DNA of 64,000 nucleotides from an uncultured Anaerolineales bacterium (lineage in GTDB: Bacteria; Chloroflexota; Anaerolineae; Anaerolineales; UBA11858), in NCBI GenBank assembly GCA_964629085.1, contig CAZVPR010000002.1, positions 20,428-84,427 of the forward strand, read 5' to 3'. A program made the translations under genes and the position numbers. This document shows positions 5,844 to 39,164 of this stretch, piece by piece (positions within the stretch are counted from its first letter, which is position 1; each line of letters starts with the position of its first letter). The notes beneath the pieces were generated by a model that worked only from the letters and a program-made list of their open reading frames with translations, was not told the origin of the DNA and did no database searches.

Positions 5844-6695
5844 TTGATAGGCTTTCTGATTGTGATGGCCATTTTCATCACCCCCGCCATCATAGTTGCC
5901 GTGGCAATCGGCGACCGTAATTCTGGCTTCGGTTTATACATCAGCATCATCATTGGGCTGATGCTGGCCAGTATGGTCGGGGTGATTGTATGGGGCATCA
6001 ACAGCACTCGTAAGCGTGCCAAAAAGTTGGATGCCATCTTCACACCCTGGGGATTGACCGGAGAATCGTATTACTACAGCGGACGTCAATATCACGGAGA
6101 GGTCAAACGACGCCCTGTCGATGTTTATTTTCATCGCGGGCCAACCCTGGACATCTCCATCGAATCCCGGTTGGATGCCAGGGCATTTATTGTATTCAAA
6201 AGCGAAATCGGCAAATACTCTGCCAGCCTGGCCAACTTCGAAGATGTGGCCCTGAACAACCCTACCTTCCACAACTTCAGCATTTATGCTCAAGATCGAT
6301 ATTGGATGGAAAACATCCTGGACGGTGAAGCCGTCCGTCAGGCTCTGCGCCAATTGATGAGCGTCACTGGGGCCTACGAGCTGCGCAAGGTAATGATCCA
6401 GCCCAAGGAGCTCAAGTTCACTTTGCGCCGCATCCACATGGACGAGATCAACCCGGAGAACATGCAAGCCTGGTTCGATGATTTATTTACCTTCCTCAAA
6501 GCTGCTGAGGCGGCACCCACACCACAGGCTGCAACGTTAGCAACCCCCATTGAAGAAGATTCCGACCAGGTAGATCGCAAATCAATACCCATTTTGGCCT
6601 CTGCAGTAGCGTGCAGCGTAGCCGGCACCCTGGGCTTTTGCGCATTCGCCATCACGGTCATCAGCCTGATATTCCGTTCTGTGCTGGCACCATAA
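5844..6695 (+). CDS. Membrane-anchored hypothetical protein (N- and C-terminal TM segments)
   Basis: 283 aa with hydrophobic N-terminus (IGFLIVMAIFITPAIIVAVAIG, IIIGLMLASMVGVIVWGI) and C-terminus (ILASAVACSVAGTLGFCAFAITVISLIF). The start is uncertain: TTG 5844 or ATG 5865. Confidence 0.5.
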   Translation: MIGFLIVMAIFITPAIIVAVAIGDRNSGFGLYISIIIGLMLASMVGVIVWGINSTRKRAKKLDAIFTPWGLTGESYYYSGRQYHGEVKRRPVDVYFHRGPTLDISIESRLDARAFIVFKSEIGKYSASLANFEDVALNNPTFHNFSIYAQDRYWMENILDGEAVRQALRQLMSVTGAYELRKVMIQPKELKFTLRRIHMDEINPENMQAWFDDLFTFLKAAEAAPTPQAATLATPIEEDSDQVDRKSIPILASAVACSVAGTLGFCAFAITVISLIFRSVLAP

Positions 6696-7496: not shown

Positions 7497-7524
7497 TGGA
7501 CAATCCCACATATTATTGTATAAT
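7497..7524 (+). promoter_or_regulatory. Sigma-70-like promoter for the 7565 gene
   Basis: TGGACA (7497-7502), 16-nt spacer, TATAAT (7519-7524). The Shine-Dalgarno (SD) sequence AAGGAGAG at 7553-7560 precedes ATG 7565. Confidence 0.55.
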
Positions 7525-7564
7525 GGACACGATTTATCCAATTACGAACCCCAAGGAGAGCACG

Positions 7565-9586
7565 ATGAAACAAGGAAAATCATCCAACTTGCTGCGGATT
7601 TTGGTCGCGGCAATGGTATGGGTATTGGCTTTTGCCATGTCGGCCTTCAATGGTCAGGCTGGGCCAGTACTGCAAGAGGAAGACCCCTATTTAGAAATTA
7701 TCAACGAAACCGAAACAACTTTGTGTTTATTCGGCGCCGTGCCCGATGGGGTAACTGAAATTGCCGAAGAGCATATTATCGCCGAACAAGAACTCGAATC
7801 TTATGACGATTTCTGGCTGGAAACCGGCCTGGAAGGTACCTTTACATTGATTGCAACCGATTGTGATGAATATTCGATCGTCGCTGAGGCCCCGGGAGTC
7901 ATTTTGGGGCAGGTGCCCGTCGTCTGGTGGGTCGGCTATGAAGTGGAATACCTGGGCGATGTTGTCGAGACTGAAGAGCAGGCGCCTGTTGAGGAAACAG
8001 AATCCAGCTCCACGGAATCCGCCGGCACCGGTTCTGCTGAAGTCAGCGCTGGCAGCGCCGACAGCGGCTTCCGCCCCGCGAGCCACGGCTTCAGTTTCGA
8101 AAATTATGGTGACAATATCCAGGTTGAGAACCTGACCGCAGTCGAGATGCAGCGTCTGTTTGGCGATAAGGTTTGCGCCAGTCAGGCCGGTGGTGAGTGC
8201 ATCTTGACGCCACCCGCCAAGCAGTGGATGAAAGAAATCAACAATTATATGGCCGGCGGACACTGTGAGGGTATGGCCGTGCTCAGTCTGTTGATGTACA
8301 GCAACCACGTCAATCCAGGCGACTTTGGTGCCACCAGCACGTATGATCTTTCCATAAACAACGAGGCTTTGCAGCGCGAGATCGCGTATTGGTGGACTAC
8401 GCAAGCCACCTGGCCAGCCGCAGCGGTAAAAATTAACGAATCGCCTCAGGCCGTCGTGAATGCCTTGATCGAAACCTATACCTCGTATCCTTCTCCAGAG
8501 GAAGAATGGGTTATGGGCATTTATATGGCCGACTTCAGCGGTGGCCATGCCATTACGCCCTTTGCCGTAGAAGATAAAGGAGAAGGCATCTATCATATTT
8601 TGGTCTATGATAACAACTGGCCCGACCAGAGCCGCGTTGTGGAAGTGGATTACGATGCCAACACCTGGCGCTACCAGGCTTCTACCAACCCTAACGAGCC
8701 CGAGTCGCTCTACGAAGGTGATCAAAGCACCCAAACCCTGGAGATCGTGGGCATCAACCAGCGCATGATGCAGCAAGAATGTGATTTCTGCGCCGGTGGT
8801 GGTGCTTCAGGCCAGATTCGTGGCGGGCGAGGCCTGGCGGCTGCCTCGCAAGAATTCAACCAGATCTGGCTCAACGGTCAGGCTGACCTGCAAATCATTA
8901 CTGAAGACGGCCAGCGCATCGGCTTCTTCGATGGTGAATTCATCAATGAGATTGAAGGCGCTCGTGGCGACAATATGAAGTTTGGCGTCGATATCTGGGA
9001 CATCAACAACGAGCCGGTCTATTTCATCCCCCTGGGGATTCAGTTCTCCATCACCGTGGATGCCAGCCGCGCTACTGAAGGCATTACCAATGATGTGGTC
9101 ATGATCGGCCCCGGATACGATCTGGTGGTTGCTGAACTTTACCTTGACCCAGGCACGTCCGACACGATCACCGTCTCTCCCGATGGCACCTTGCTGGCTT
9201 ACAGCACCGAGTACAACGACGCCCCGGACATGATCTTCGGCGTCGAGACTCCGGCAGCCGACTACGAATTCATCGTCGCCGCGCTGGACATCGAATCGGG
9301 CGCTGAGTTTGTCATCGAACTGGATATGGACGCAGGCTATCTGAGCGTCAACACGGATAACACGACCGAATATGGCGTCTACGAGATCGTCATGTACCGC
9401 ATCGACGATGAGGGCGAATCCTGGTTCAGCAATGACGATATTTACATGGAACCCGGCGATACCAGCTACTTCCTGTTCAGTGAGTGGGAAGGCCCTGGCA
9501 GCAGCTTATTCATCGACATCGACTACGGCAGCGATGGCTCTATCGATGAGAGCATCGAGTTAGCAGATGAGTACGAAGCTGAGTAA
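7565..9586 (+). CDS. Exported protein with a cryptic papain-like Cys/His/Asn pattern and a very acidic C-terminal region (function unknown)
   Basis: ATG 7565 is preferred over the track's 7523, which lies inside the -10 hexamer. Signal peptide MKQGKSSNLLRILVAAMVWVLAFAMSAFNG. Blocks GGHCEGMAVLS, SGGHAITPFAV and ILVYDNNWP occur in the order and spacing of clan-CA peptidase catalytic residues. Confidence 0.6.
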   Translation: MKQGKSSNLLRILVAAMVWVLAFAMSAFNGQAGPVLQEEDPYLEIINETETTLCLFGAVPDGVTEIAEEHIIAEQELESYDDFWLETGLEGTFTLIATDCDEYSIVAEAPGVILGQVPVVWWVGYEVEYLGDVVETEEQAPVEETESSSTESAGTGSAEVSAGSADSGFRPASHGFSFENYGDNIQVENLTAVEMQRLFGDKVCASQAGGECILTPPAKQWMKEINNYMAGGHCEGMAVLSLLMYSNHVNPGDFGATSTYDLSINNEALQREIAYWWTTQATWPAAAVKINESPQAVVNALIETYTSYPSPEEEWVMGIYMADFSGGHAITPFAVEDKGEGIYHILVYDNNWPDQSRVVEVDYDANTWRYQASTNPNEPESLYEGDQSTQTLEIVGINQRMMQQECDFCAGGGASGQIRGGRGLAAASQEFNQIWLNGQADLQIITEDGQRIGFFDGEFINEIEGARGDNMKFGVDIWDINNEPVYFIPLGIQFSITVDASRATEGITNDVVMIGPGYDLVVAELYLDPGTSDTITVSPDGTLLAYSTEYNDAPDMIFGVETPAADYEFIVAALDIESGAEFVIELDMDAGYLSVNTDNTTEYGVYEIVMYRIDDEGESWFSNDDIYMEPGDTSYFLFSEWEGPGSSLFIDIDYGSDGSIDESIELADEYEAE

Positions 9587-12079: not shown

Positions 12080-14350
12080 ATGACTACAGGAACACAAACC
12101 CTACCAACCAATACAGCCCGATCACAGGCCATGTCGATCAATTATCAAAAGATCATCGGTGTGGTAAGTCTGTTAGCCATTATCCTTCTGGGCGCGTTTT
12201 TTCGATTTTACAAACTTGGCGCTTACACCATTGGAAATACCTATTATGCGGCCGCAGTCAAATCGATGCTGACCTCCTGGCACAATTTCTTTTTCGTTTC
12301 CTTCGAGCCAGGTGGCACTGTGACGGTCGATAAGCCCCCCTTGGGATTTTGGGTTCAAGCGATTTCCGCCTACTTTTTTGGAGTCAATGGCTTTGCCCTG
12401 GCCTTTCCGCAGGCCCTGGCCGGGACGCTTTCCATCCCGGTGCTCTACCATCTGGTGCGCAAAAATTTCGGCATTTGGGCCGGGCTGATGGCAGCCCTGG
12501 TTCTGGCGTTAGTCCCTGTGACCATCGCCACCGAACGCAACAATACCATCGACGGGTTGCTTGTCTTCGTGCTGCTGTTGGCAGCCTGGGCTTTTCTCAA
12601 AGCTACTGAAACTGGTAAAACCCGTCATTTAATTCTGGGCGCAATTCTGGTGGGTCTGGGATTCAACATCAAGATGCTGCAAGCCTACATGGTGCTGCCG
12701 GCGTTCTATGCGCTGTATCTCTTTGGCGCTCGCAATGCCTGGTGGCAACGCATCCTACAGCTTGGCGCAGCAACCATCGTTTTGCTGGCGGTGTCCTTCG
12801 CCTGGGTGATCGCCGTTGACCTGACCCCTGCTGACCAGCGTCCTTATATCGGCAGCAGTGATAACAATACGGTTATGGAACTCATCGTCGGGCATAACGG
12901 ATTGAGCCGTTTGGGATTAAATGATAATCGCGGCCCCGGTGGGGGGGATGGCCCCAGGGATGGCGCTGCTCCCGGGGGCAATGCGAACCTACCTCAGGCG
13001 GGCTTCACCCCTCCCGGGCAGAATTCTGCTCCCGGTGGGAATCAAACCAATAACCGTCGACCGCCACAAGAAGCCTTCGATGCCTGTACAGGGCTGGCAG
13101 TTGGGGATGCCTGCACCGTCGACCTCCCTAATCAAGCTATAGAAGGCATCTGTTTTGCCCCCTCGCAAAATGAACTGGTCTGTGCTCCAGAAGACAGGCT
13201 GCCGCAACAGGCCAATGCCAATGCGCCCGGGCAGTTCCAACCGCCCTCCGGGGGTAACGGTCCAGGGAATGATGGCCCCGATGGAAACCGAGGCCCATCG
13301 ACAGGCGCAGGACAGCGCAATATGAACGGCGGTGAGACTGGGCAAGCGGGCGTACTGCGTCTGTTCGCAGAACCCCTGGTCACCGAGACCAGTTGGCTGC
13401 TCCCCCTGGTGCTTTTAGGCTTGCCTGTTGGTTTGATTGCTGCGGGCTGGTCATGGCCGCTGAACGGCAAACACAAGAGCATCTTGCTCTGGGCTGGTTG
13501 GCTGCTGCCTGCCATGGCATATTTCAGCTTTACCACGGGGTTGTGGCACCGTTACTACCTGATCATGTTGGGGCCGCCCATCGCTGCACTAGTTGGCATC
13601 AGCCTATGGAGCCTGGCAAAACACTGGCAGAAGAATCCCACCCTCGGTTGGATCCTGGCTGCCCTGCTGACCAGCCTGACCATCATCTTCGAAATCTACA
13701 CCTTCCAAAATTACCCTGATTATTCCACCTGGGTGAGCGTGATTTCCATCCTGATCGGGCTGGCAGGAATCGGCTTCCTGGCCATCAGCAAGTTGATCCC
13801 TCTGCACAAAATCGGCTTGAGCCTGCTGTTGCTGGCCATGTTGGTGGCCCCTTTCGCCTGGTCATTGCTGACCACACTCAACACCAACCCCAACGTAGGT
13901 CTGCCCACCGCTGGGATTTCAGCCTCCGACCAGACTCGTTCATCCTTCATGACCCCAGACGTATCTACGCTCAGCGCCAATGGGCAGGCAATTTTAGAAT
14001 ACACATTGGCCAACTCCGAACCCGACAATTATTTGCTGGCAACGCTCAATGCCCGCGGTGCAGCGCCCTATCTTCTGGAAAGCGACCGTAAAGTGCTGAC
14101 CTTCGGCGGCTTCGGTGGCCGTGATGACGTGATCGATCTGAATGAATTGATCGCTATGATCGATACTGGCGAACTACGCTACATCCTGGGCATCCCCCAA
14201 CAGAAACAGGAGATCGCTCAATGGATGGTCAATAACTGCTCCGTCGTAGACATTCCTGGCGTGACAGTCACAAATTCAGCCAATAATCAGAACAATCGCC
14301 CCGGACCTGGCGGGCAATCCAGTGAGGTGCTTTATGACTGCGGAAAGTAG
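12080..14350 (+). CDS. GT-C fold glycosyltransferase, family 39/83 (PMT/ArnT-like) with a large low-complexity insertion
   Basis: 756 aa with many TM helices. VDKPPLGFW motif in the first external loop. SD AAGGAG at 12068-12073. A G/P/N/Q-rich insertion of about 145 aa (nt ~12915-13350) contains the 4-Cys module PPQEAFDACTGLAVGDACTV...LVCAPED. Confidence 0.75.
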   Translation: MTTGTQTLPTNTARSQAMSINYQKIIGVVSLLAIILLGAFFRFYKLGAYTIGNTYYAAAVKSMLTSWHNFFFVSFEPGGTVTVDKPPLGFWVQAISAYFFGVNGFALAFPQALAGTLSIPVLYHLVRKNFGIWAGLMAALVLALVPVTIATERNNTIDGLLVFVLLLAAWAFLKATETGKTRHLILGAILVGLGFNIKMLQAYMVLPAFYALYLFGARNAWWQRILQLGAATIVLLAVSFAWVIAVDLTPADQRPYIGSSDNNTVMELIVGHNGLSRLGLNDNRGPGGGDGPRDGAAPGGNANLPQAGFTPPGQNSAPGGNQTNNRRPPQEAFDACTGLAVGDACTVDLPNQAIEGICFAPSQNELVCAPEDRLPQQANANAPGQFQPPSGGNGPGNDGPDGNRGPSTGAGQRNMNGGETGQAGVLRLFAEPLVTETSWLLPLVLLGLPVGLIAAGWSWPLNGKHKSILLWAGWLLPAMAYFSFTTGLWHRYYLIMLGPPIAALVGISLWSLAKHWQKNPTLGWILAALLTSLTIIFEIYTFQNYPDYSTWVSVISILIGLAGIGFLAISKLIPLHKIGLSLLLLAMLVAPFAWSLLTTLNTNPNVGLPTAGISASDQTRSSFMTPDVSTLSANGQAILEYTLANSEPDNYLLATLNARGAAPYLLESDRKVLTFGGFGGRDDVIDLNELIAMIDTGELRYILGIPQQKQEIAQWMVNNCSVVDIPGVTVTNSANNQNNRPGPGGQSSEVLYDCGK

Positions 14351-14786
14351 AACAAGTAACTTGGAAGGTGATAAAAACCTCCCAGGTTTAGAAACGATCA
14401 TTCAAGCCATCAAATATGCCACTGTAGGCGTATCCAACACGCTCATCGACGCGGCAGCTTACTTTGCCCTCACCCGTTGGCTGTGGCTGGGATCGCTGCC
14501 GGTGTTAGCCAAAGGAATAGCCTATGCCATCGGCATGGTGAACAGTTTCTACTGGAATCGAAATTGGACCTTCAAAAGTAAGGGCACGATATATCGTGTC
14601 CCAACCTGGAAGGCGGCTTTCCTGTTCACCCTGACACACATCGCGGCCTTGGGAATCAATGCTGGCGTGATGTTCTTGGGGCTAGAAGTCTTGGCGTTGA
14701 GTGAAATTCTCTCGCTAATTCTGGCAACCGGTGCTGCCTTCGGCTGGAATTTTATTTTGAACAAGTTGGTCGTTTTCAAGGCATGA
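14334..14786 (+). CDS. GtrA-family membrane protein (polyprenyl-phosphate-sugar flippase-like)
   Basis: 150 aa from ATG 14334 (SD GAGG 14324-14327), overlapping the GT39 stop. 4 TM segments and the YAIGMVNSFYWNRNWTFK signature of GtrA-like proteins. Confidence 0.8.
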   Translation: MTAESRTSNLEGDKNLPGLETIIQAIKYATVGVSNTLIDAAAYFALTRWLWLGSLPVLAKGIAYAIGMVNSFYWNRNWTFKSKGTIYRVPTWKAAFLFTLTHIAALGINAGVMFLGLEVLALSEILSLILATGAAFGWNFILNKLVVFKA

Positions 14787-14899
14787 TGATTCACCGCTAA
14801 GACGCAAAGAGCGCCAAGATGATTGTTTTTTCTACATTTTGTTTTCTTTAGAATTAACTTCGCGATCTTCGCAACTTCGCGTTAAACAAGGAGTAAATC

Positions 14900-15631
14900 A
14901 TGAAATCTTTATCCATTGTCATACCCGCTTATAATGAAGAAGCCAATCTGCACACCACCATAGCAGAGATATCCAGCGTGCTCTCTGACATGCCTATTGA
15001 TTATGAAATTATCCTGGTCAATGACGGCAGCCGCGACCGTACTGGAGAAATTGGCCGTGCGTTAGCCAAATCTGTGTACAACTTCCGTCTGGTAGAGCAT
15101 TACCCAAACCGCGGTTATGGCGGGGCGTTGAAATCTGGCTTCGACGCCGCGCAAAAGGAGTTGATCGCTTTCTTCCCCGCGGACAACCAATTCCACTTTG
15201 GTGAGATCATTGTCCTACTTGAACGCATGATCGTGACAGAAGCGGCTATTGTCTGCGGCTACCGTGCTCCTCGGCGCGATCCCTTGATGCGTAAAGTCAA
15301 CGCTTTTGGTTGGAACATGCTTGTCAGGGTATTATTTGGATATCTATGTCGTGACATCGATTGTGGTTTCAAACTCTTCCGGCGCGATATTCTCAACTGT
15401 GTGAACATCACATCTGATGGCGCGCTGATCGATACCGAATTCTTATCCAGCGCCCGACGCCTGGGTCTTCGCATCGAAGAGGTACCCGTGACTCACCGCC
15501 CGCGTGTTGGGGGCGAAGCAACGGGCGCAAATCTGCCTGTGATCATCAAAGCATTTCGCGATTTATGGAAATTGCTGCAGGAGCAGGCTGCCAATAACGG
15601 CTACCTGAAATGGCGTTTTGGATTACGGTAG
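14900..15631 (+). CDS. Family 2 glycosyltransferase, polyprenyl-phosphate sugar synthase type (DPM1/GtrB/ArnC-like)
   Basis: 243 aa. LSIVIPAYNEE, VNDGSRD and the FFPADNQ acidic motif of GT-A family 2. SD AAGGAG lies just upstream. Confidence 0.85.
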   Translation: MKSLSIVIPAYNEEANLHTTIAEISSVLSDMPIDYEIILVNDGSRDRTGEIGRALAKSVYNFRLVEHYPNRGYGGALKSGFDAAQKELIAFFPADNQFHFGEIIVLLERMIVTEAAIVCGYRAPRRDPLMRKVNAFGWNMLVRVLFGYLCRDIDCGFKLFRRDILNCVNITSDGALIDTEFLSSARRLGLRIEEVPVTHRPRVGGEATGANLPVIIKAFRDLWKLLQEQAANNGYLKWRFGLR

Positions 15632-15677
15632 AATAACTATACCCTTTTATCAGTATCATCCAATAAAGGAGTCATAG

Positions 15678-16610
15678 ATGACCAATAAATCTTCTCTTTC
15701 ACGGCGAGATTTTCTCGGCTTGATGGCAATGGGCGGATTCAACTTGACTTTTGGGAAGGCTTTACTAACGCTTACAGGCACCCAAGCCACATCAACGGGA
15801 ATTGATATGGCCATAGCCCGCGCGACCAGTTACAAACCGGCTGCCCTGGTTGAAGCAGCCATCGCCGCGCTGGGCGGCATGGAAAACTTCGTCAAGCCGG
15901 GCGATCATGTCATCATCAAGCCCAATATCGTCGCTGCCGATTATTCCTATGAATATGCGGCTTACACAAACCCTGAAGTGGTCGGCGCGCTCACGGCGCT
16001 GTGCGTCGCTGCTGGCGCCGGAAGTGTGCGTATGATGGATTCCCCTTCCACTAGCTCCGGTGAACAGGCTTACGCCCGCAGCGGCATCGGCGAGGCAGTG
16101 AAGGCAGCCGGTGGTCAAACCGAAGTCATGAGCCAGATCAAGTTCCGCAACGTCGATATTCCCGAGGGGCGCGATATCAAAAATTGGACGATTTATGGGG
16201 ATGTGCTCGATGCGGATGTGCTCATCAATGTGCCAATTGCCAAACACCATTCACTTGCCAAACTGACTCTGAGCATGAAAAACCTGATGGGTGTGATCAC
16301 AGATAGGGGAAAATTTCACCGCAAATTGGGGCAGCGCCTGGCCGATCTGGCCAGCCTGGTCCGTCCCACGCTGACGATTATGGATGCGGTCAACATCCTG
16401 ATGAATCGCGGCCCGCGCGGCGGCAACCTCAACGACGTCAAAGCGATGAACACAATCATTGCCAGCCAGGATTTCGTTGCCACTGGGGCCTACGCGGCCA
16501 CGTTCTTCGGCAAGACCGGCTCAGATATCGACGCACTGCGCCTCGGTGCTGAGATGGGGCTGGGCAGCCTCGATCTGAACGGCCTTTCGATCGAAGAAAT
16601 CAGCGTTTAA
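15678..16610 (+). CDS. Tat-exported DUF362-domain protein
   Basis: 310 aa. Twin-arginine signal SRRDFLGLMAMGG. The VKPGDHVIIKPNIV and PIAKHHSLAKLTLSMKNLMG blocks are typical of DUF362. Confidence 0.7.
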   Translation: MTNKSSLSRRDFLGLMAMGGFNLTFGKALLTLTGTQATSTGIDMAIARATSYKPAALVEAAIAALGGMENFVKPGDHVIIKPNIVAADYSYEYAAYTNPEVVGALTALCVAAGAGSVRMMDSPSTSSGEQAYARSGIGEAVKAAGGQTEVMSQIKFRNVDIPEGRDIKNWTIYGDVLDADVLINVPIAKHHSLAKLTLSMKNLMGVITDRGKFHRKLGQRLADLASLVRPTLTIMDAVNILMNRGPRGGNLNDVKAMNTIIASQDFVATGAYAATFFGKTGSDIDALRLGAEMGLGSLDLNGLSIEEISV

Positions 16611-16621
16611 GTGTTGAAACC

Positions 16622-18193
16622 GTGAGCATCCGGGAAGCCCCATTCACACCACCCAAAGATCAGCGAAAAAAGTGGAGCCGCTGGCGTAGATTGCGTCAGA
16701 TCGTGCAAATTCTGGCTTTATTGCTGTTTTTCTATCTGCTGATTGTCAACTGGCGCGCCGGCGCGGCTTCTGCTCAATCGGGAATATTCTTCCGGCTCAA
16801 CCCGTTGACCGCGCTGACAGCTATGCTGGCCAGTCGAGCCTGGATTCCCAAGTTGGGTTGGGCGCTGATCACAGTAATGGCGACGTTATTGCTGGGTCGC
16901 GTGTGGTGTGGCTGGCTTTGCCCCCAAGGGACTATCCTGGAATGGATTCGCTTCCCTGGGGCTTATCAACGCTCAAACAGGATCGCGCCCCGCTGGAGGT
17001 CGGTGAAATATCTTCTTCTGCTGGTCATTCTCGGCATGGCATTGATGGGCAGTATGACACTGCTACTCTTCGATCCCATCACCATCCTGACGCGCTTCAC
17101 GTCCACAAGTTTATTTCCGGCGTTCAACGATGGCATCACCCAACTTGAGTTCGCGCTTTATCGATATCCGCTTTTCCAACCGCCCATCAATTGGATCGAG
17201 AGCAATCTGCGCGGGGTAGTCTTGCCCTCCGTTCAATCAGCATTCAGGCAAAGCGTCCCCATTCTGGCACTTTTTGCAGGTATCCTGGCGCTCAACGCGC
17301 TGGCAGATCGATTTTGGTGCCGGTACCTGTGCCCACTGGGCGGAATGCTGGGGCTGCTCTCGAAAATTTCTTTGTTCAGGCCGTTCATCACCACCCAGTG
17401 CAATCACTGCGATCACTGCCTGAGTGAATGCAAGCTGGAGGCTATTCAGGCACACGATGGATCGGATATTGCTCCGCACGAAATTATCATCTCGGAATGC
17501 ACCATGTGTATTGATTGTCTGGCCAGTTGTCCGGAGAGCGGCATCACGTTCAGGGGCCAAACACAGCCGGTTTATTCACAAGATTTCGACCCTGACCGCC
17601 GTCAGGCTTTGTTGTCTTTGGGGGCTGGTGCAGTTGGCGCTCTGCTCATCGGCACGGATGCGGCGACAAAATCGCCCAGCCCAAGCTTGATTCGTCCGCC
17701 GGGCGTCGAAGACGAAGATGATTTTCTGGCCCACTGCATCCGGTGCAGTGAGTGCATGCAAGTCTGTGCCACATCAGGTTTACAACCAACCCTATTCGAG
17801 GCCGGTTTGGAGGGACTTTGGACACCGACATTGGTGCCGCGGCTGGGCCCTTGTGATTACAGTTGCACAGCTTGTGGCGAGGTTTGCCCCAGCGGTGCCA
17901 TCCCCCTGTTGGATTTGGAAACCAAGCGCCAGCAAATTATCGGACTGGCCGTTTTGGATCGCAACCGTTGTTTGCCTTGGGCTTATGCCACGCACTGCAT
18001 CGTCTGCGAGGAAATGTGCCCGGTGCCGGACAAAGCCGTGCGGTTAGAAGAAGTCACCGTGATCGACCCATGGGGGTATGAGGTGATTGTGCAACAGCCT
18101 TTTGTAGTGCGTGATTTGTGCACTGGCTGCGGCATTTGCGAATTTCATTGTCCTATGGAAGCCCAATCGGCCATCCAGGTTCAACGCCGGTAA
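16622..18193 (+). CDS. Membrane polyferredoxin: NapH-like N-terminal half fused to a NapG/MauM-like C-terminal half
   Basis: 523 aa with a GTG start. Two CX3CP motifs (WCGWLCPQG, WCRYLCPLG) sit between TM helices. Cluster motifs CNHCDHCLSEC and CTMCIDCLASCP follow. An internal Tat-like segment DRRQALLSLGAGAVGALLIG is then followed by CIRCSECMQVC, CTACGEVCP, CIVCEEMCP and CTGCGICEFHCP. Confidence 0.75.
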   Translation: MSIREAPFTPPKDQRKKWSRWRRLRQIVQILALLLFFYLLIVNWRAGAASAQSGIFFRLNPLTALTAMLASRAWIPKLGWALITVMATLLLGRVWCGWLCPQGTILEWIRFPGAYQRSNRIAPRWRSVKYLLLLVILGMALMGSMTLLLFDPITILTRFTSTSLFPAFNDGITQLEFALYRYPLFQPPINWIESNLRGVVLPSVQSAFRQSVPILALFAGILALNALADRFWCRYLCPLGGMLGLLSKISLFRPFITTQCNHCDHCLSECKLEAIQAHDGSDIAPHEIIISECTMCIDCLASCPESGITFRGQTQPVYSQDFDPDRRQALLSLGAGAVGALLIGTDAATKSPSPSLIRPPGVEDEDDFLAHCIRCSECMQVCATSGLQPTLFEAGLEGLWTPTLVPRLGPCDYSCTACGEVCPSGAIPLLDLETKRQQIIGLAVLDRNRCLPWAYATHCIVCEEMCPVPDKAVRLEEVTVIDPWGYEVIVQQPFVVRDLCTGCGICEFHCPMEAQSAIQVQRR

Positions 18194-26009: not shown

Positions 26010-27650
26010 ATGCAAAAAACAAAAATGCTCGTTTTGGCTCTCGTACTACTCGTCAGCGGATTGGTGGCTCTCAACAACGCCCAATCCGCGGCCGCCTCAT
26101 CGCTGGCGGATATATTGGGTCAATTTACCAGCGAGGCTTGCCTCGACAATACAGCCGATGAGGGCCAGTGCAAAGATTGCTGCGACAGCCTTGATGCGGA
26201 CGGCAAAGCTCGCAAAGCCTGCCGCGATTCTTGCGCGGTACAGGATTTCGCTCAAAATATTGAATTGATCTCATTCGAAATCACATCTGTACTCGGACCT
26301 GGTGGCGACTACTCTGTTTGCTCGGCCAGCGGCGATGAACGTACCTGCAAGGATTGTTGTGACGATTCCAATTCAATAGCCGGCGGCGACCGGCGCTTTT
26401 GCCGCGATGCCTGTTCCGACGCAACCGGCGCACAGAACAACCAAAACCCCGCTCCACCCCCCGAGCAAGGACAACCACCCCAAGGTCAATCTCAAGGCCC
26501 CCGAGAAATGACTATCCAGCAAGCCATTTCCGATGAAGCCCAAATGAAGACCATCGCCTTTGACGCTTTGTCTTTCCTGACCGGAAGCTTGGGCGCCGAT
26601 TCCTTCTTCCCACCCGGAAAGGTGGCAGATTTCTGGGGTTTCCAATATTTGCGCGACAACGACCTCAGTGAGATGGGCCACAACACCGATTTCCTCACAA
26701 GTGCCGCGTTCAATATGCTGAACGTGCTGACACCTGCTCAGCGCGCCGAATTGATCGTGCTGGCCAAAAGCCAGGTGGATGAGATCAACCAGTATGGCTA
26801 CATGCGCTTCACCCTGATGGATGCTTTTCGGAGCTTGTTAGAAGGCGATCTGCCTGCTGGCACATCTGGGCTAAGCGAGGCGGCCGTCAAAGCTTACTCG
26901 TCAGATCTTTATCGCCTGGATGGTGAGATCAGCTTCGAGCGGGCGCAGGTGATGGGCAGCCTGTTGCACGCCCTGGATTCTGATCAACGCGCTTATCTGG
27001 ATGTTATGGTCGGTCAGGGTATGCTCGATTGGCCCGATGTAAATGAACCCGACGACATGCGCGGTTTGGCGCGCGATGTCAAGGTGGCCGTGATGACCTA
27101 CGCTGGCGATATGTTCAGTTGGTATGTCGGCTCTCTGGAAGCGGACGTCTACTTCTGCCCCGAGCGTCAAGGCACTTACTTCGGCGCTTTCTATATGAAA
27201 GACGCTCCAGCAGTCGGCAACCCCGGCTACAACATCGGCACCAACATCACCGCTGATTCGGGCCAGGCTTTGTTGGATACACTTAACCCAGAGCAGGCCA
27301 ATCTGATCACCAGCCTGGTGGATGTACAGCGCAGCGATCTGACTAGCATTGTGGACGTGCGCCAGCAAGTCGCAGTTGAACTGCGTAAGTTCATGGCTGG
27401 TGAATCCGCCGATTTGGCTTATGTACTCGGTCTGATGGAAAGATACGGAGAATTGGATGGCGCCATCGTTTATAACTACGCCAAGAATTTTGCCCGAGTA
27501 AAGCAGATGTTGAGCTCAGAACAACTGGCGCAATTGATGACTTTGCGAGAAGAATTACTTGGTGAGTTGATTTTCCCGTCTGGGGCTTATCTCTACTCTC
27601 AGCCCATCCCAATGCCAGAGATTGGGAATACGGACTTCTTGTTCCAATAA
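26010..27650 (+). CDS. Exported hypothetical protein with a duplicated N-terminal Cys motif
   Basis: 546 aa with a signal peptide. Two copies of C-K-D-C-C-D-x(n)-C-R-D-(S/A)-C (CKDCCDSLDADGKARKACRDSC; CKDCCDDSNSIAGGDRRFCRDAC). A Q/P/G linker is followed by a ~380-aa domain with no motif I recognise. Confidence 0.6.
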   Translation: MQKTKMLVLALVLLVSGLVALNNAQSAAASSLADILGQFTSEACLDNTADEGQCKDCCDSLDADGKARKACRDSCAVQDFAQNIELISFEITSVLGPGGDYSVCSASGDERTCKDCCDDSNSIAGGDRRFCRDACSDATGAQNNQNPAPPPEQGQPPQGQSQGPREMTIQQAISDEAQMKTIAFDALSFLTGSLGADSFFPPGKVADFWGFQYLRDNDLSEMGHNTDFLTSAAFNMLNVLTPAQRAELIVLAKSQVDEINQYGYMRFTLMDAFRSLLEGDLPAGTSGLSEAAVKAYSSDLYRLDGEISFERAQVMGSLLHALDSDQRAYLDVMVGQGMLDWPDVNEPDDMRGLARDVKVAVMTYAGDMFSWYVGSLEADVYFCPERQGTYFGAFYMKDAPAVGNPGYNIGTNITADSGQALLDTLNPEQANLITSLVDVQRSDLTSIVDVRQQVAVELRKFMAGESADLAYVLGLMERYGELDGAIVYNYAKNFARVKQMLSSEQLAQLMTLREELLGELIFPSGAYLYSQPIPMPEIGNTDFLFQ

Positions 27651-33325: not shown

Positions 33326-33356
33326 TTTGGCAAGTTTATTCGTAAAGGAGCAAACC

Positions 33357-34973
33357 ATGAATATCAAAAAGAAAACTCTATTCGCAGCAATGGCATTCGT
33401 TTTTGCGATAACAGCAAGCAATCTCGTTTTTCCTCTGGTCACTGTCGTTGCCAAAACCGTCGAAGCCATACCAGAAACAGAGCCTTCAGGCGATGTTGAA
33501 ACTCAGGACGCGGCGATATTCAGTTACCCCATCGTCGACACCGGACAAGAATACTGCTACAGCGATAACGGCAGTATCCCTTGCCCGGAGGATGGACAAT
33601 CGTATTACGGCCAGGATGGTCAGGTGATCGGCAATCAAGCCCGCTACCAGGATAACGGCGACGGCACTGTGACCGACCTAGTGACCGGTTTGATGTGGCA
33701 GCAGGACCCCGGCGAAAAAATGACCTATGCCGAAGCCGCTTCCGGCGCGGACAGCTTCAGTTTGGCGGGCTACAATGATTGGAGATTACCCACCATCAAA
33801 GAGCTGTATTCGTTGATTGATTTCAGCGGCACCGATGTCAGCCGCTGTGTTGAAGAGGGCACCTGCACGGGCAACCCCTTCATCGATACTGATAATTTCG
33901 ATTTCGAATATGGGGACACCGCCGCCGGAGATCGCATCATCGACTCGCAGTGGGCTACCAGCACGATTTACGAAGGCAGTGTTATGAACGGCTCCCAGGC
34001 CATGTTCGGGGTCAACTTCGCCGATGGTCGCATCAAGGGCTACGGCACGGGAGTAGGCCGCGGCGGTCAAGCAAAAGGTTTCTTTGTGATCTACGTACGT
34101 GGGAACACGAGCTACGGAGAGAACAACTTTGCCGACAACGGCAATGGTTCGGTTACCGATAACGCTACTGGCCTGACCTGGATGCAATCCGACAGCGCCC
34201 AAGGCTTAGACTGGGAAGAAGCTCTCAATTATTGCTCGAGCCTCGACTATGCCGGGATCAGCGATTGGCGGCTGCCCAATGCTAAAGAGCTGCACAGCAT
34301 CGTCGATTACAGCCGCTCTCCAGACACAACCAACTCAGCAGCCATCGATCCAATCTTCAATGTAACTTCGATTACCAACGAAGCTGGTCAGACCGATTAC
34401 CCCGCTTTCTGGAGCAGCACGACCCACGCAAACTCCAATGGAATGACAGGCGCCGGTGTATACATCAACTTTGGTCGCTCGATGGGCAACATGAACAACA
34501 ACTGGATGGATGTGCATGGTGCTGGCGCACAACGCGCTGAAATGAAAAGCGGTGATCCCTCCATCTATTCAACCGGCCACGGGCCGCAAGGCGACGCCGT
34601 TCGGGTCTACAACTACGCTCGCTGTGTGACCGGCGGCACGACGGATGAAGTGATCACCGGCGGTGAGATCGACCCCAACGCTGTTGCCAATTCAGAATTC
34701 GCAAGTGGGTCGCCGCAGGCGCAAGCCGGTCAACAGACTGGGCAGCCCTCGGGAAATAATCTGGCCGGCGCGGCTGGCAGCAACCAGCTTTCCCAGTCCG
34801 GGCCGCCTCAGGAAGCCATTGATGCCTGCACCGGTTTGAGCGCAGGCGCCACTTGCTCCGTAGGCCCTGGCAGTGGAACCTGTGAGAATATCCAGAATCA
34901 ACTAGTTTGTGTGCCGGAAGGCGGCCCTCCGGGAGGAGGGCAGGGTCCACCCCAAGGAGGTGGGCAGCCATAA
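33357..34973 (+). CDS. Exported DUF1566 (Lcl C-terminal domain) protein ending in the 4-Cys module
   Basis: ATG 33357 is preferred (SD AAGGAG). Signal peptide. Two DUF1566 blocks (TGLMWQQD...DWRLPTIKELYSL; TGLTWMQSD...DWRLPNAKELHSI). A Q/G/N linker is followed by PPQEAIDACTGLSAGATCSVGPGSGTCENIQNQLVCVPE. Confidence 0.75.
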   Translation: MNIKKKTLFAAMAFVFAITASNLVFPLVTVVAKTVEAIPETEPSGDVETQDAAIFSYPIVDTGQEYCYSDNGSIPCPEDGQSYYGQDGQVIGNQARYQDNGDGTVTDLVTGLMWQQDPGEKMTYAEAASGADSFSLAGYNDWRLPTIKELYSLIDFSGTDVSRCVEEGTCTGNPFIDTDNFDFEYGDTAAGDRIIDSQWATSTIYEGSVMNGSQAMFGVNFADGRIKGYGTGVGRGGQAKGFFVIYVRGNTSYGENNFADNGNGSVTDNATGLTWMQSDSAQGLDWEEALNYCSSLDYAGISDWRLPNAKELHSIVDYSRSPDTTNSAAIDPIFNVTSITNEAGQTDYPAFWSSTTHANSNGMTGAGVYINFGRSMGNMNNNWMDVHGAGAQRAEMKSGDPSIYSTGHGPQGDAVRVYNYARCVTGGTTDEVITGGEIDPNAVANSEFASGSPQAQAGQQTGQPSGNNLAGAAGSNQLSQSGPPQEAIDACTGLSAGATCSVGPGSGTCENIQNQLVCVPEGGPPGGGQGPPQGGGQP

Positions 34974-34974
34974 A

Positions 34975-35038
34975 CCCTCACCCCTTCTCGCTTGCGCTTG
35001 ACTCCCTTCTCCCAATGGGAGAGGGGCTGGGGTGAGGG
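34975..35038. repeat. Dispersed hairpin repeat family B, copy 2 (intercistronic)
   Basis: CCCTCACCCC (34975-34984) and GGGGTGAGGG (35029-35038) are exact reverse complements. The interior CCAATGGGAGAGGGGC is shared with 7321-7394. Confidence 0.85.
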
Positions 35039-35055
35039 CAAAAAAGGAGCTTGTC

Positions 35056-36636
35056 ATGAAGAAAAAACCCTTTACCATTCTAACCATTCTGCTCAGTTTA
35101 TCGATCCTGGCCTGTGTATTTGCAGAAACCGTTGCCGGACAAGTACTCACAGGCGCCGATGGTCATCGCCAGGACGCTGATATCTCTGAGAGTACTGATA
35201 ATAATTCATCCATCCCCCTTCTCCTGGATTTTCCCACAGATACTTCACAAGCCAGCAATCAAATCACAGACGGGTATTACCTCTTTTCACCAATTCGCTC
35301 TACCGAGACCTACCTGATGGACTCCAATGGAGTGGCTGTTTTCACCTGGCAGAGCGATTACACTCCCGGTCACGCGGTCTATTTCTTAGATAACGGCAAC
35401 CTGCTGCGATCCGGAAGCCTGGGCCGCGGTACCTTCAGTGCCGGCGGCGTGGGCGGGGTCATTCAGGAGGTCGCCCCCGATAACAGCGTGGTTTGGGAAT
35501 TCCAATACGCCGATGGCCTGGTCCAACAGCACCACGATATCGAGCAATTGCCCAACGGCAACATTCTGTTGATCGCCTGGGAGTTGAAGACCCGAGAAGA
35601 AGCTATCGCCGCCGGACGTGACCCCAGCTTGCTAGATGAGGGCGAACTCTGGCCGGATCATGTTGTTGAGGTGGATCCTGCCACCCATGAGATCGTCTGG
35701 GAATGGCATGTCTGGGACCACCTCATTCAGGATTACGACTCCAGCAAGCCTAACTATGGCATGGTTGCGGACCACCCTGAACGGATCGATCTCAACTATA
35801 CCGTCAACCGTAAAGCTGGTGCCGATTGGAACCACACCAACTCGATCGATTACAATGCCGACCTCGACCAAATCATCCTCAGTGTGCTGGGGTTCGGCGA
35901 GATTTGGATCATCGACCATAATACGACTACGGAAGAAGCCGCTGGACCGGCCGGCGACCTGCTTTATCGCTGGGGTAATCCCGAGGCATATGACACTGGA
36001 ACCGCGCAGGATCAGCAACTTTTTGGTCAGCATGATGCCCAATGGATTCCCACTGAGTATCCTGGCGGCGGCAACATCTTGATCTTCAACAACGGCGACC
36101 GCCGCACGCGGGCTTACTCCTCCGTGGACGAGATTATGCCCCCCCTTAACAGCGATGGCAGTTATGCGCTCACAGCGGGTACTGCTGATAAGCCAGAGAC
36201 CACAACCTGGTCCTACGCTTCCCCCAACGATTTCTACGCCGATCATATCTCCGGTGCACAGCGCCTGCCCAATGGCAACACGCTGATCTGCAGCGGGACC
36301 GACGGGCGCTTCTTCGAAGTGACTCCCGCTGGGGAAATCGCCTGGGAATACAATTATGGCGCCGAGGTCTTCCGGGTCTCGCAGATCGCTGCCGATCATC
36401 CTGGTTTGGCAAGCCTAGCTCTGCAACCTGGTGATGTGCTGATCGGTGAGAGTGGTGTTCGAAACCAAAGCTCTGGGGGCCAACTCCAGGACAATGGTTC
36501 CCCTCCGCAACCGGCGATAAACGCCTGCAATGGCTTGGTCGAAGGAGACGCCTGCACAGTTCAACTACCCAAACGGACGGTAAACGGTTCTTGCCAGACT
36601 ATTCAGAACCAATTGGCCTGCGCACCAGACGGATAA
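35056..36636 (+). CDS. Exported arylsulfotransferase-like beta-propeller protein ending in the 4-Cys module
   Basis: ATG 35056 (SD GGAG). Signal peptide with a lipobox-like ILAC. The blocks DNGNLLRSG, VQQHHDIEQLPNGNILLIAWE, NHTNSIDYN and LPNGNTLIC resemble the ASST beta-propeller family. The C-terminus is PPQPAINACNGLVEGDACTVQLPKRTVNGSCQTIQNQLACAPDG. Confidence 0.55.
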   Translation: MKKKPFTILTILLSLSILACVFAETVAGQVLTGADGHRQDADISESTDNNSSIPLLLDFPTDTSQASNQITDGYYLFSPIRSTETYLMDSNGVAVFTWQSDYTPGHAVYFLDNGNLLRSGSLGRGTFSAGGVGGVIQEVAPDNSVVWEFQYADGLVQQHHDIEQLPNGNILLIAWELKTREEAIAAGRDPSLLDEGELWPDHVVEVDPATHEIVWEWHVWDHLIQDYDSSKPNYGMVADHPERIDLNYTVNRKAGADWNHTNSIDYNADLDQIILSVLGFGEIWIIDHNTTTEEAAGPAGDLLYRWGNPEAYDTGTAQDQQLFGQHDAQWIPTEYPGGGNILIFNNGDRRTRAYSSVDEIMPPLNSDGSYALTAGTADKPETTTWSYASPNDFYADHISGAQRLPNGNTLICSGTDGRFFEVTPAGEIAWEYNYGAEVFRVSQIAADHPGLASLALQPGDVLIGESGVRNQSSGGQLQDNGSPPQPAINACNGLVEGDACTVQLPKRTVNGSCQTIQNQLACAPDG

Positions 36637-36757
36637 GAAACCATGACGCGGTACCTCGGAAATTTGGTATTGGGTATTGGATAATCGGTATTCGTACCTC
36701 ATTACCCAATACCTAAAACCTGAACATTACCAAACGCTTACAAGCCCCCAACCCGGC

Positions 36758-36801
36758 CTGAACAGCTTCTAAGCAATTTCTGAACAACCTTTTGCTATGC
36801 T
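36758..36801 (+). promoter_or_regulatory. Activator-box promoter 3: three in-phase repeats CTGAACA / CTAAGCA / CTGAACA plus TATGCT hexamer
   Basis: Repeats start at 36758, 36769 and 36780 (11-bp phasing). The 9-nt spacer ACCTTTTGC precedes TATGCT (36796-36801). ATG 36842 has SD AGGAGG. Confidence 0.6.
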
Positions 36802-36841
36802 TATAGCAAGATACCAAAGCACGTGTATGCAGGAGGATGTC

Positions 36842-38299
36842 ATGAACAAGAATTTATTTTTCATCATGGTTTTAGTTAGCGCTTTGTTTATTGCACAAAT
36901 GGCGTGCTCAATACCCGGCTCATCCGAGGCACAGGTTGAAGGCTCCCAGCCTGTCAATGCGCTGGAAGAGAACGAAGAGGAAGGAATAGCAGATGTACCA
37001 GCGGCAACACAAGCACCTTCTCCACAACCGGGCCAGGGCAACAATCAGCCGGGCGGCGGCCAACAAAATCAGGGCAACCAGGGCAATAATCAACCGGGTG
37101 GTGGTCAACAACCGCAGGGAAACCAACCCTGCCAGGATGGCTTCATCGCCAATGGCAACATTGCCAACGGGCAAGTATTCGAATCAGACGAGAGTTTTCA
37201 AGTGATTTGGACATTGGAAAATACCGGCAATTGCACCTGGAACAGCGGTTATGTTCTGAAGATGCTTGGCGGCGATATTATTACTTCAGAAAGCGAACTA
37301 GCAGTGAGTGCAACGGTAAACCCTGGGAACACGACCACCCTTTCAGTAGACATGCAAGCCCCCTCAACGCCAGGCAATTATGTATCCGCCTGGAAAATGA
37401 CCGATGGACAGGGCCATGCCTTTGGGTTGGATTCTCCCCCTAATGCTCCCTTGCGGGTAGCTATCAAAGTCATCCCGGCAGGCAACCAGGGCAATCAATC
37501 CAACCCCACCCCCGAAGCGAATCCCGATGCGGCAGTAACCGGGAGCGGGCAAACCTTGCTCGACGGGCAGTGCTTCGACCTCAACAGCGGCCAGGAAGTC
37601 GCTTGCAACAACAGCGCCGCCGATGTGATGTATCAGTTCAACCCGGTAACCAGCGGAAAATTCCATGGCCAGAACAACACCAACCTGGCCAACAACCGTG
37701 ATGAAGAGCCCGATAAAGCAACTTGCGAAGCAGAAACGTATCCGCCCATGGCGCATTCAGCACTGGAAGACAAGTACTTTTGCTTCCAAATCAACAATAT
37801 CGTCAACACTACCTACGGCTGGATGCGAGTCGAACGCTTCGATCAAGACGGCGTCACCTTCGATTTCATGACCTTCAAGACTGACCCGCCTGTCGCTCAG
37901 CCGATCAACCCCAATGCCCTCTTCGTCGAGAGCCAGGGTGATCAGGTTACCATGTTAAAAGGCGAATGCTTCGATGTAGGGAATGGCCAACTCAACGAGC
38001 AGTGCACAGGCGTTTTCGCCGGCTTCCTGTACGAAGAAACTACCAAACGAAATATCACTGTCATGCAGATCAACCCCAGCGAAGTTACATATGCAGCTGC
38101 TTTGAGTTTTGAACCAAACAAATCGGATTGTGAAACTGCCAGTTATAACCAATCCCCTATCTGGCCCATCAAAGAAACGGAATACTATTGCTACCAATTC
38201 ACATCGGGAATCAATACTCATTACGGCTGGCTGCGCCCGACTTATTTTGACACCAACGGCATGACCTTTGATTATCTGACCTGGCAGGCGATGCCATGA
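36842..38299 (+). CDS. Exported protein: NBR1-FW-like Ig domain plus two copies of an unnamed 4-Cys ~120-aa domain
   Basis: ATG 36842 is preferred. Signal peptide and a Q/G/N-rich linker. WTLENTGNCTWNSGYVLKMLGGD...PGNYVSAWKMTDGQGHAFG matches the NBR1-like bacterial Ig fold. The C-terminal halves repeat: GQCFDLNSG...TYGWMRVERFDQDGVTFDFMTF and GECFDVGNG...HYGWLRPTYFDTNGMTFDYLTW. Confidence 0.55.
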   Translation: MNKNLFFIMVLVSALFIAQMACSIPGSSEAQVEGSQPVNALEENEEEGIADVPAATQAPSPQPGQGNNQPGGGQQNQGNQGNNQPGGGQQPQGNQPCQDGFIANGNIANGQVFESDESFQVIWTLENTGNCTWNSGYVLKMLGGDIITSESELAVSATVNPGNTTTLSVDMQAPSTPGNYVSAWKMTDGQGHAFGLDSPPNAPLRVAIKVIPAGNQGNQSNPTPEANPDAAVTGSGQTLLDGQCFDLNSGQEVACNNSAADVMYQFNPVTSGKFHGQNNTNLANNRDEEPDKATCEAETYPPMAHSALEDKYFCFQINNIVNTTYGWMRVERFDQDGVTFDFMTFKTDPPVAQPINPNALFVESQGDQVTMLKGECFDVGNGQLNEQCTGVFAGFLYEETTKRNITVMQINPSEVTYAAALSFEPNKSDCETASYNQSPIWPIKETEYYCYQFTSGINTHYGWLRPTYFDTNGMTFDYLTWQAMP

Positions 38300-38409
38300 A
38301 TGGTGGGAAGTTGATTGTTGATAATGGGCAGAATTGTGAGACACTGCCCACATGCTAACTTGCTTACTTGCCCACACGCCCACTTACAAACTTGCACTAT
38401 AATTAAACT

Positions 38410-39105
38410 ATGAACAAAACCATCCTCGTCGTAGACGACAAAGCCAATGTGCGCACCCTCTTGCGGGAATATCTGACCGAAGAGGGTTTTCACGTTGTGA
38501 CGGCCGAGAACGGCCAGGAGGCGCTATACGTCGCCCGCCACGAAAAACCCGATCTGGTCATCCTGGACATTATGATGCCCGAAATGGGCGGCTATGATTT
38601 CCTGCGTGCCTACCGCAAAGAGCAAGATACGCCGGTGATCATGTTAACCGCCAAGATCGAAGAATCCGACAAAGTACTCGGTTTAGAACTGGGCGCCGAC
38701 GACTACGTCACCAAGCCATTCGGCATGCGCGAGATTGTCGCCCGCATCCGGGCCGTGCTGAGGCGCACCGGCCAGACCGCGCCCCCCTCCGAGGTGCTGC
38801 GCGGTGCCGATATCACCCTCGACAAAGGAGGCCATACCGTCAAAGTCGGCGACGATTTCATCGACCTGACTCCCTCTGAATTTGATTTACTAGCCGTACT
38901 GCTGGAATCCCCAGGGCGAGTCTTCTCTCGACTGGATTTACTGGAAAAATTGCAGGGCACCGCTTTTGAGGGCGTGGAACGAACCATCGATGTCCACATC
39001 CGCAACTTGCGCACCAAGATCGAACCCGACCCCAGCCAGCCGCGCTATATTGAGACCGTTTTCGGTGTGGGATACCGATTCGGAGCGGGGAGCAGTGAGC
39101 GGTAA
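38410..39105 (+). CDS. OmpR/PhoB-family response regulator
   Basis: 231 aa. Receiver domain (ILVVDD, phospho-Asp in LVILDIMMP, LTAK) and winged-helix output (LTPSEFDLLAVLLESPGRVFSR..., IETVFGVGYRF). Confidence 0.95.
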   Translation: MNKTILVVDDKANVRTLLREYLTEEGFHVVTAENGQEALYVARHEKPDLVILDIMMPEMGGYDFLRAYRKEQDTPVIMLTAKIEESDKVLGLELGADDYVTKPFGMREIVARIRAVLRRTGQTAPPSEVLRGADITLDKGGHTVKVGDDFIDLTPSEFDLLAVLLESPGRVFSRLDLLEKLQGTAFEGVERTIDVHIRNLRTKIEPDPSQPRYIETVFGVGYRFGAGSSER

Positions 39106-39164
39106 GCCGAGAGCATTTGACCCTCATCCTCACCACTCTCCATTGTCCACTTCCCACTAAAATT

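Follow-up and report, generated by a model that had tools for sequence, protein, structure and literature searches.

Conserved pairing of a Tat-exported DUF362 protein with a polytopic polyferredoxin, a candidate extracytoplasmic redox unit

Two adjacent genes were analysed in a 64,000-nucleotide stretch of DNA from an uncultured Anaerolineales bacterium (contig CAZVPR010000002.1; the whole stretch is called the window below). The first gene (15678..16610, + strand, ATG start) encodes a DUF362 protein of 310 amino acids (Pfam PF04015) with a signal for the twin-arginine translocation (Tat) pathway. The second gene (16622..18193, + strand, GTG start) encodes a polytopic polyferredoxin (PFD) of 523 amino acids, a fusion of a NapH-like and a NapG-like part, which was assigned from the open reading frame (ORF), its NCBIfam and Pfam matches and full-length homologues of about 500 amino acids. 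Only 11 nt separate the stop of the DUF362 gene from the start of the fusion gene. The analysis established the domain identities of both proteins, their conserved motifs, the linkage of the two genes and the Tat-type signals on both partners. We regard it as reasonably probable that the pair is a conserved two-gene operon for a self-contained redox unit outside the cytoplasm, with the polyferredoxin as the conductor of electrons and the DUF362 protein as the client that does the chemistry. The fusion itself is known, and the new part is its pairing with DUF362, for which literature searches found no descriptive paper.

Linkage of the two genes across genomes

The linkage was followed from each of the two genes. 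In the scan seeded with the fusion (alignment A1), which took one genome per GTDB species and gave at least 310 relatives, the best 80 loci were used; ORFs were called in the loci and searched with hidden Markov models (HMMs) built from the homologue hits. A DUF362 gene was found directly upstream of the fusion on the same strand in 74 of the 80 loci and downstream of it in one, and two loci were cut at a contig end. DUF362 adjoins the fusion in 75 of the 78 informative loci, which represent at least ten phyla and include Chloroflexota, Nitrospirota, Desulfobacterota, Acidobacteriota, Verrucomicrobiia, Actinomycetes, Ignavibacteria, Leptospira, Hydrogenedentes, Aminicenantes and others, and it is truly missing in the remaining three (L020, L054 and L062). 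When a metagenome scan was seeded with DUF362 (A2), the fusion was located directly downstream in 60 of the 66 loci with enough downstream sequence; standalone genes for DUF362 proteins with a Tat lipoprotein signal were found in L116, L143 and L161. Complete genomes with the pair include OY969431.1, CP070825.1 and OY843751.1. The two genes overlap or lie at most 50 nt apart in 48 of the 71 complete pairs, and the pairwise distances of one protein are correlated with those of the other (r=0.90, Mantel p=0.001). The original prediction, made from the letters of the window, had offered conserved linkage across genomes as its own test, and both scans returned it.

Beyond the pair, all-against-all clustering of the neighbours within 8 kb in the 80 loci revealed no third conserved neighbour apart from two subsets, namely DUF6599, present in 10 loci that are nearly all from Chloroflexi but also include a Nitrospira locus (L047) and the DUF362-less L062, and a second, divergent DUF362 near the pair in some Chloroflexi. 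In a longer Chloroflexi operon (L001 4973-9605; L002 4945-9548; also L003-L006), the order is a divergent DUF362 with its own Tat signal and lipobox, the orthologous DUF362, DUF6599 and the polyferredoxin. The next neighbour cluster is made of mixed proteins at varied positions and on varied strands. Between relatives at 74-77% identity the flanks change and only the DUF362-fusion pair is constant.

Architecture and export of the two partners

Polytopic polyferredoxins were described by Tooke et al. (2017, eLife; PMC5449189) as proteins that cross the membrane five times, hold Fe-S clusters on either face of it and have a conserved twin arginine immediately in front of the fifth transmembrane domain, and were explicitly termed a fusion of NapH and NapG. 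Their members come from Chloroflexi, Nitrospirae and Euryarchaeota, with Anaerolinea thermolimosa among those listed, and reporter fusions demonstrated that export depends on Tat for one member only, the PFD of delta proteobacterium MLMS-1 (Q1NSB0), which is inserted by a dual Sec/Tat route. The paper treats membrane insertion, with no mention of DUF362 and nothing on gene context or physiological role (PMC5449189). Compared with the transmembrane region of Q1NSB0 printed in the supplement of that paper, the window fusion showed 38% identity over residues 55-311 (E=1e-39); judged by its sequence, it is a member of the published family. The two proteins share four NapH-like helices, cytoplasmic Fe-S motifs, a twin arginine before an apparently weakly hydrophobic helix 5 and a NapG-like domain with four clusters. 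The reading of a single-polypeptide NapH-NapG fusion stood up well, with NapH matches at residues 14-313 and NapG matches at 325-521 of one ORF, as did the reading of both ORFs and of every quoted motif, all of which are present on the + strand at the coordinates given here. Novelty of the fusion architecture, in contrast, could not be upheld, as the NapH-NapG fusion has been known since its publication in 2017, with experiments on the MLMS-1 homologue (PMC5449189).

[quoted passage not shown] Against NCBIfam, the first 313 residues match NapH (TIGR02163, E=5e-26, 91.8 bits, below the cut-off of 213; PRK09477, E=1e-21, 77.3 bits, below the cut-off of 234) and residues 325-521 match NapG (PRK09476, E=4e-30, 104.8 bits, below the equivalog cut-off of 269), so the scores fall far short of equivalog assignment. 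In BLASTP comparisons with the E. coli K-12 proteins taken from NC_000913.3, the fusion is 23% identical to NapH over residues 14-310 (E=2e-14). To NapG it is 35% identical over residues 327-520 (E=3e-25), and each of the 16 cysteines is matched in that alignment. These similarities, like the Pfam match of DUF362, are far stronger than chance would give. The fusion also differs from NapGH in being a single polypeptide, in an outer loop between helices 3 and 4 that is longer than in E. coli NapH by about 42 residues (from the BLASTP alignment) and in having DUF362 rather than a nitrate reductase as its partner. A Pfam scan of essentially all ORFs of at least 110 amino acids in the 64-kb window found no napA, napB, napC or napD and no cytochrome, molybdoenzyme or other reductase gene; the original prediction had likewise seen no reductase catalytic subunit of a known type nearby. 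Among the neighbours in the 80 related loci, no nap gene is recurrent.

The NapH-like membrane module (residues 14-310, 16661..17551, +) comprises four transmembrane helices and a cytoplasmic Fe-S region, as delimited by BLASTP to E. coli NapH and by hydropathy. It holds the first CX3CP motif, WCGWLCPQG (residues 95-103, 16904..16930, +; C96, C100 and P101), and the second, WCRYLCPLG (residues 232-240, 17315..17341, +; C233, C237 and P238), followed by two cytoplasmic [4Fe-4S] motifs of the CxxCxxCxxxC type (17399..17533, +), CNHCDHCLSEC at residues 260-270 and CTMCIDCLASCP at residues 293-304, whose eight cysteines align to the C-terminus of E. coli NapH. The NapG-like domain (residues 358-520, 17693..18181, +), which is predicted to lie on the outer face, carries four cysteine clusters, CIRCSECMQVC (372-382), CTACGEVCP (415-423), CIVCEEMCP (459-467) and CTGCGICEFHCP (500-511). 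All 28 cysteines of the fusion (4 in the CX3CP motifs, 8 cytoplasmic and 16 NapG-like) and the two CX3CP prolines are conserved in at least 95% of 82 family members.

Between the two parts, the twin arginine and the fifth helix (residues 325-347, 17594..17662, +) form a predicted Tat-dependent anchor, which rests on the conservation of the arginines, the NapG alignment and the hydropathy. The segment DRRQALLSLGAGAVGALLIG spans residues 325-344, with D-R-R at 325-327; R326 and R327 are invariant in alignment A1, and a twin arginine precedes helix 5 in 79 of the 82 members, with KR or RK in the other three. The alignment with E. coli NapG begins directly after the twin arginine and spans the NapG signal peptide, which is why we read this segment as the retained Tat signal of NapG, now serving as a fifth transmembrane helix, in agreement with the original prediction. 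Hydropathy revealed five hydrophobic segments (24-42, 82-100, 131-149, 210-228 and 329-347). Together with a basic N-terminus (9 Lys or Arg in 27 residues), the five segments are consistent with the proposed topology, which resembles that of NapGH, where NapH lies in the membrane and NapG is placed outside via Tat. Helix 5 has a Kyte-Doolittle mean of 1.58, compared with 2.27 for the first and 2.53 for the third transmembrane helix. Within the 12 residues after helix 5, the window protein has a single basic residue, a lysine, whereas most relatives in the family have two to five. In the outer loop that joins helices 3 and 4 (residues 150-209), D151, P152, R158 and P166 are conserved in the family, and either the NapG-like domain or DUF362 could dock there.

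The start of the polyferredoxin gene (16622-16693) differs between gene callers, with 500 amino acids in the JGI call and 523 in the NCBI call. We consider the GTG at 16622 the better start because W18, R22 and R23 do not vary among the aligned family members and are retained in the longer form.

The DUF362 protein matches PF04015 over profile positions 1-199 of 200 (E=1e-46, 160 bits with a cut-off of 24), and the domain occupies residues 78-274 (15909..16499, +) by the Pfam envelope and by the invariant residues in 72 phylum-diverse orthologues. These are K81-P82-N83, T97, D121, K189, H191, K201, H214 and D236. Wherever divergent DUF362 paralogues align, T97, D121, K189, H191, K201, H214 and D236 are retained, while K81 and N83 are not uniformly so. 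The invariant polar set resembles an active site. The family is large, with 8,832 clusters at 50% identity within reach of the profile and 732 at E<=1e-30, and DUF362 is often accompanied by Fe-S binding domains, fused or nested inside, as well as by CBM9 and dockerin modules (PMC5742341, PMC7955657). An identical copy of the window protein is found in public assemblies.

The N-terminal Tat signal of the DUF362 protein has the twin-arginine motif S-R-R-D-F-L at residues 8-13 (15699..15716, +), within the segment SRRDFLGLMAMGG at residues 8-20 of the translation. The original prediction had called this signal genuine, and its conservation bears this out, as R9 is kept in 72, R10 in 67 and F12 in 69 of the 72 orthologues. 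A Tat regular expression was matched by 67 of the 74 partner DUF362 proteins, the rest being five RK variants and two 5'-truncated sequences; among 122 full-length DUF362 representatives with at most 50% mutual identity, 104 have the twin arginine and 5 have RK or KR. The short Pfam TAT_signal model gave no score for the window protein. In five representatives (P0256, P0268, P0271, P0291 and P0332), T-R-A-E-F-L or S-R-A-D-F-L replaces the twin arginine, leaving a single arginine in an otherwise Tat-like signal. With Tat-type signals both on DUF362 and before helix 5 of the fusion, the two partners are predicted to be directed to the same outer face.

After the signal, a lipobox-like cysteine is present in all 23 Chloroflexi orthologues (21 by pattern and 2 by eye) compared with 5 of 48 from other phyla, which would be consistent with an anchored extracytoplasmic protein. 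A long Pro/Thr-rich linker often follows the Tat signal in Chloroflexi orthologues (L003-L023). Both the cysteine and the linker are missing in the window protein (15678-15800) and its nearest relatives (P0002-P0008), which may be released or retained by an uncleaved signal.

These features also bear on whether DUF362 is a redox partner at all. The tight operon linkage is what one would also expect of a dedicated maturation factor, and DUF362 might be an assembly or export factor for the polyferredoxin, or the reverse. Known Tat proofreading chaperones, however, lack a signal peptide and work in the cytoplasm, in contrast to the exported DUF362. The DUF362 family is also large, its invariant polar pocket is of the kind usually seen in active sites, and elsewhere DUF362 is fused to Fe-S or carbohydrate-binding modules. 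We consider such a helper role highly improbable.

What kind of active site DUF362 might have is hinted at by its distant kinship with lactate racemase, since DUF362 and DUF2088, the N-terminal domain of LarA, share Pfam clan CL0471 (PMC11770544, PMC7955657). In LarA1, the nickel-pincer cofactor is bound via R75, K184 and H200, and catalysis proceeds via H108 and H174. The invariant K81, D121, H191, K201 and H214 of DUF362 are candidates for a similar set (R75, H108, H174, K184 and H200 in LarA1), matched by spacing only: H191 and K201 are 10 residues apart, equal to H174 and K184 of LarA1, and K201 and H214 are 13 residues apart compared with 16 for K184 and H200. The resemblance may serve as a lead but not as a test. 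If it holds, DUF362 might carry a tethered cofactor of the nickel-pincer type or with a single metal and catalyse an isomerisation or epimerisation that needs no net electrons, and the polyferredoxin would only activate or repair the cofactor or keep it reduced, as NosR is thought to do for NosZ; export by Tat would fit with loading of the cofactor in the cytoplasm.

Several results run counter to this idea. DUF362 was the only Pfam family matched by the protein, with no match to DUF2088 even at E<=10. PDB searches with three DUF362 profiles (full Chloroflexi, phylum-diverse and a 76-residue core motif) returned nothing meaningful and did not reach LarA, and a relaxed HMM scan of all fetched loci recovered DUF362 paralogues only. 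A protein of 310 amino acids with DUF362 at 78-274 has no room for a second domain, and the C-terminal domain of LarA is missing, which leaves a relation at the clan level only. The window scan found no larB, larC or larE, and a transmembrane wire of seven clusters seems excessive for occasional repair. LarA enzymes are not known to be linked to a polyferredoxin. We therefore regard an isomerase or epimerase served by the polyferredoxin as distinctly unlikely. A bolder combination, which we would call a long shot, is that DUF362 is related to lactate racemase but exported, and has retained the lysine tether and the histidine that ligates an organometallic cofactor of the nickel-pincer type or a similar one, that the polyferredoxin recharges this cofactor one electron at a time, and that the pair is a hydride-transfer reductase acting outside the cytoplasm, where NAD(P)H is unavailable. 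If true, Tat would have a new class of substrate and the pincer cofactor a new use.

Proposed electron path

For the redox unit that we favour, in which the polyferredoxin is the conductor and DUF362 the client, we propose the following sequence of events. The first four, NapH-like helices would be inserted by Sec, with the two CX3CP motifs and the two [4Fe-4S] sites on the cytoplasmic side. The NapG-like C-terminal domain would fold and receive its four [4Fe-4S] clusters in the cytoplasm, after which the internal twin arginine and helix 5, which is less hydrophobic than helices 1 and 3, would engage Tat, bringing the domain to the outer face and leaving the helix as its anchor. DUF362 would be exported by Tat to the same side of the membrane in a pre-folded state. 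Menaquinol or a cytoplasmic donor would feed electrons into the NapH-like part; these would cross the membrane along the Fe-S chain and be handed to DUF362, which would reduce an extracytoplasmic substrate using its invariant Lys/His/Asp pocket (K189, H191, K201, H214 and D236).

This reading of the polyferredoxin as a wire fits a general picture in which NapH-like Fe-S membrane proteins are modular conduits between a membrane or cytosolic electron pool and extracytosolic oxidoreductases encoded next to them (Meheust et al. 2021, eLife; PMC8238504). The flavinylated NosR and PceC/RdhC systems likewise have a NapH-like conduit beside the gene of an extracytosolic partner (PMC8238504), but their outer carrier is an FMN-binding domain flavinylated by ApbE, whereas the window system has a NapG-like tetra-cluster ferredoxin domain placed by Tat, and no FMN_bind or ApbE match was found by Pfam in the fusion or in any ORF of the window. 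A further parallel is MsrPQ with the fused Sco3746, in which a membrane electron-donor module serves a Tat-exported extracytoplasmic catalytic partner in split and fused forms; its folds and cofactors are unrelated, with heme b and molybdopterin in MsrPQ compared with Fe-S clusters and DUF362 in the window.

Outward flow from quinol or a cytoplasmic donor to a reductase is favoured by analogy with NapGH. The sequences do not fix the direction, and the evidence for linkage and localisation would fit equally well if DUF362 were an extracytoplasmic dehydrogenase or oxidase whose electrons pass through the NapG-like and NapH-like chain to the quinone pool or a cytoplasmic acceptor. NapH-like conduits do occur with oxidases as well, for example in alcohol oxidase clusters (PMC8238504). 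On the other side, the flow is outward in NapGH, NosR and PceC, the relatives that have been characterised, and the hosts of the pair are mostly anaerobes of sediments and groundwater, where extra reductases are common; both are weak arguments. We consider this reverse flow unlikely, but a rival to be taken seriously.

Several points weigh against a reductase unit fed by the polyferredoxin. We infer the docking of the two proteins, the flow and direction of electrons, the catalysis by DUF362 and any cofactor, and the direction in particular is assumed from the NapGH analogy. The alignment of 72 DUF362 orthologues has no conserved cysteine and no recognisable redox-cofactor motif, so it is hard to explain how DUF362 would accept electrons. 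AlphaFold2 models had low confidence (mean predicted local distance difference test scores of 53.9 for DUF362 and 40.2 for the fusion), probably due to shallow alignments, and were not used for conclusions; the topology and the pocket geometry were read from the sequence. With regard to linkage, sampling relied on conserved peptide patterns and was confined to the 80 best hits, so that typical members may be over-represented, and one gene occurs without its partner in about 4-9% of loci (L020, L054, L062, L116, L143 and L161). The correlation between the distances of the two proteins was calculated with no control for the species tree.

Genomic surroundings and significance

The window is an ordinary chromosomal stretch by Pfam, with genes for DNA polymerase III alpha, seryl-tRNA synthetase, single-stranded DNA-binding protein, transporters and two-component systems, and the scan found no ApbE or FMN-binding gene in it. 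The close homologues of the pair carry the public names "DUF362 domain-containing protein" and "4Fe-4S binding protein/polyferredoxin" and come from metagenome-assembled genomes of Anaerolineales and Chloroflexota. A ribosome-binding site, AAGGAG, was read from the sequence 6 nt 5' of the DUF362 ATG (15666..15671, +). Promoter and terminator scans gave no signal above the shuffled expectation, and an Rfam search of the window and of seven diverse loci detected no riboswitch.

A head-to-tail series of three glycosylation genes at 12080-15631 (+) ends 46 nt 5' of the DUF362 start. The first encodes a PMT_2/YkcB-like glycosyltransferase (756 amino acids), the second, with an overlap of 29 nt, a GtrA-like protein, and the third a GT2 polyprenyl-phosphate glycosyltransferase. 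This trio is kept upstream in a relative at 77% identity (L164), whereas relatives at 74% identity (L166 and L167) have a transposase there and other downstream genes. We rejected the trio as part of the unit, given the transposase in its place in the 74%-identity relative. In that relative, a DDE transposase lies 5' of the pair, and a large BrxC/PglY-like and DUF6079 gene of a phage-defence type lies a few kb 3' of it (L166 8967-12050; L167 6784-9867), which suggests that the surroundings of the module are a variable region.

Elsewhere in the window, four sizeable ORFs have no Pfam match at E<=1e-4 (5844-6695, 7523-9586, 26010-27650 and 60083-61087, encoding 283, 687, 546 and 334 amino acids, respectively). 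Of these, the 546-amino-acid ORF has a signal-peptide-like start, and the 283-amino-acid ORF has a hydrophobic, helix-like N-terminus. At 33327-40649 (+), consecutive genes encode an Lcl_C domain protein, an arylsulfotransferase-like protein and an N_BRCA1_IG domain protein, all with signal-like N-termini, and the genes of a response regulator and a histidine kinase come next.

The large DUF362 family has neither an assigned function nor a solved structure detectable by sequence search, and the description of the dual Sec/Tat polyferredoxins did not settle what they do in the cell. The pairing gives each of these two orphan families a testable partner and offers a clean two-gene system for studying the hand-over of electrons from a Tat-inserted Fe-S domain to a client enzyme. 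Its presence in at least ten mostly anaerobic phyla suggests that a redox reaction still missing from pathway maps is widespread outside the cytoplasm.

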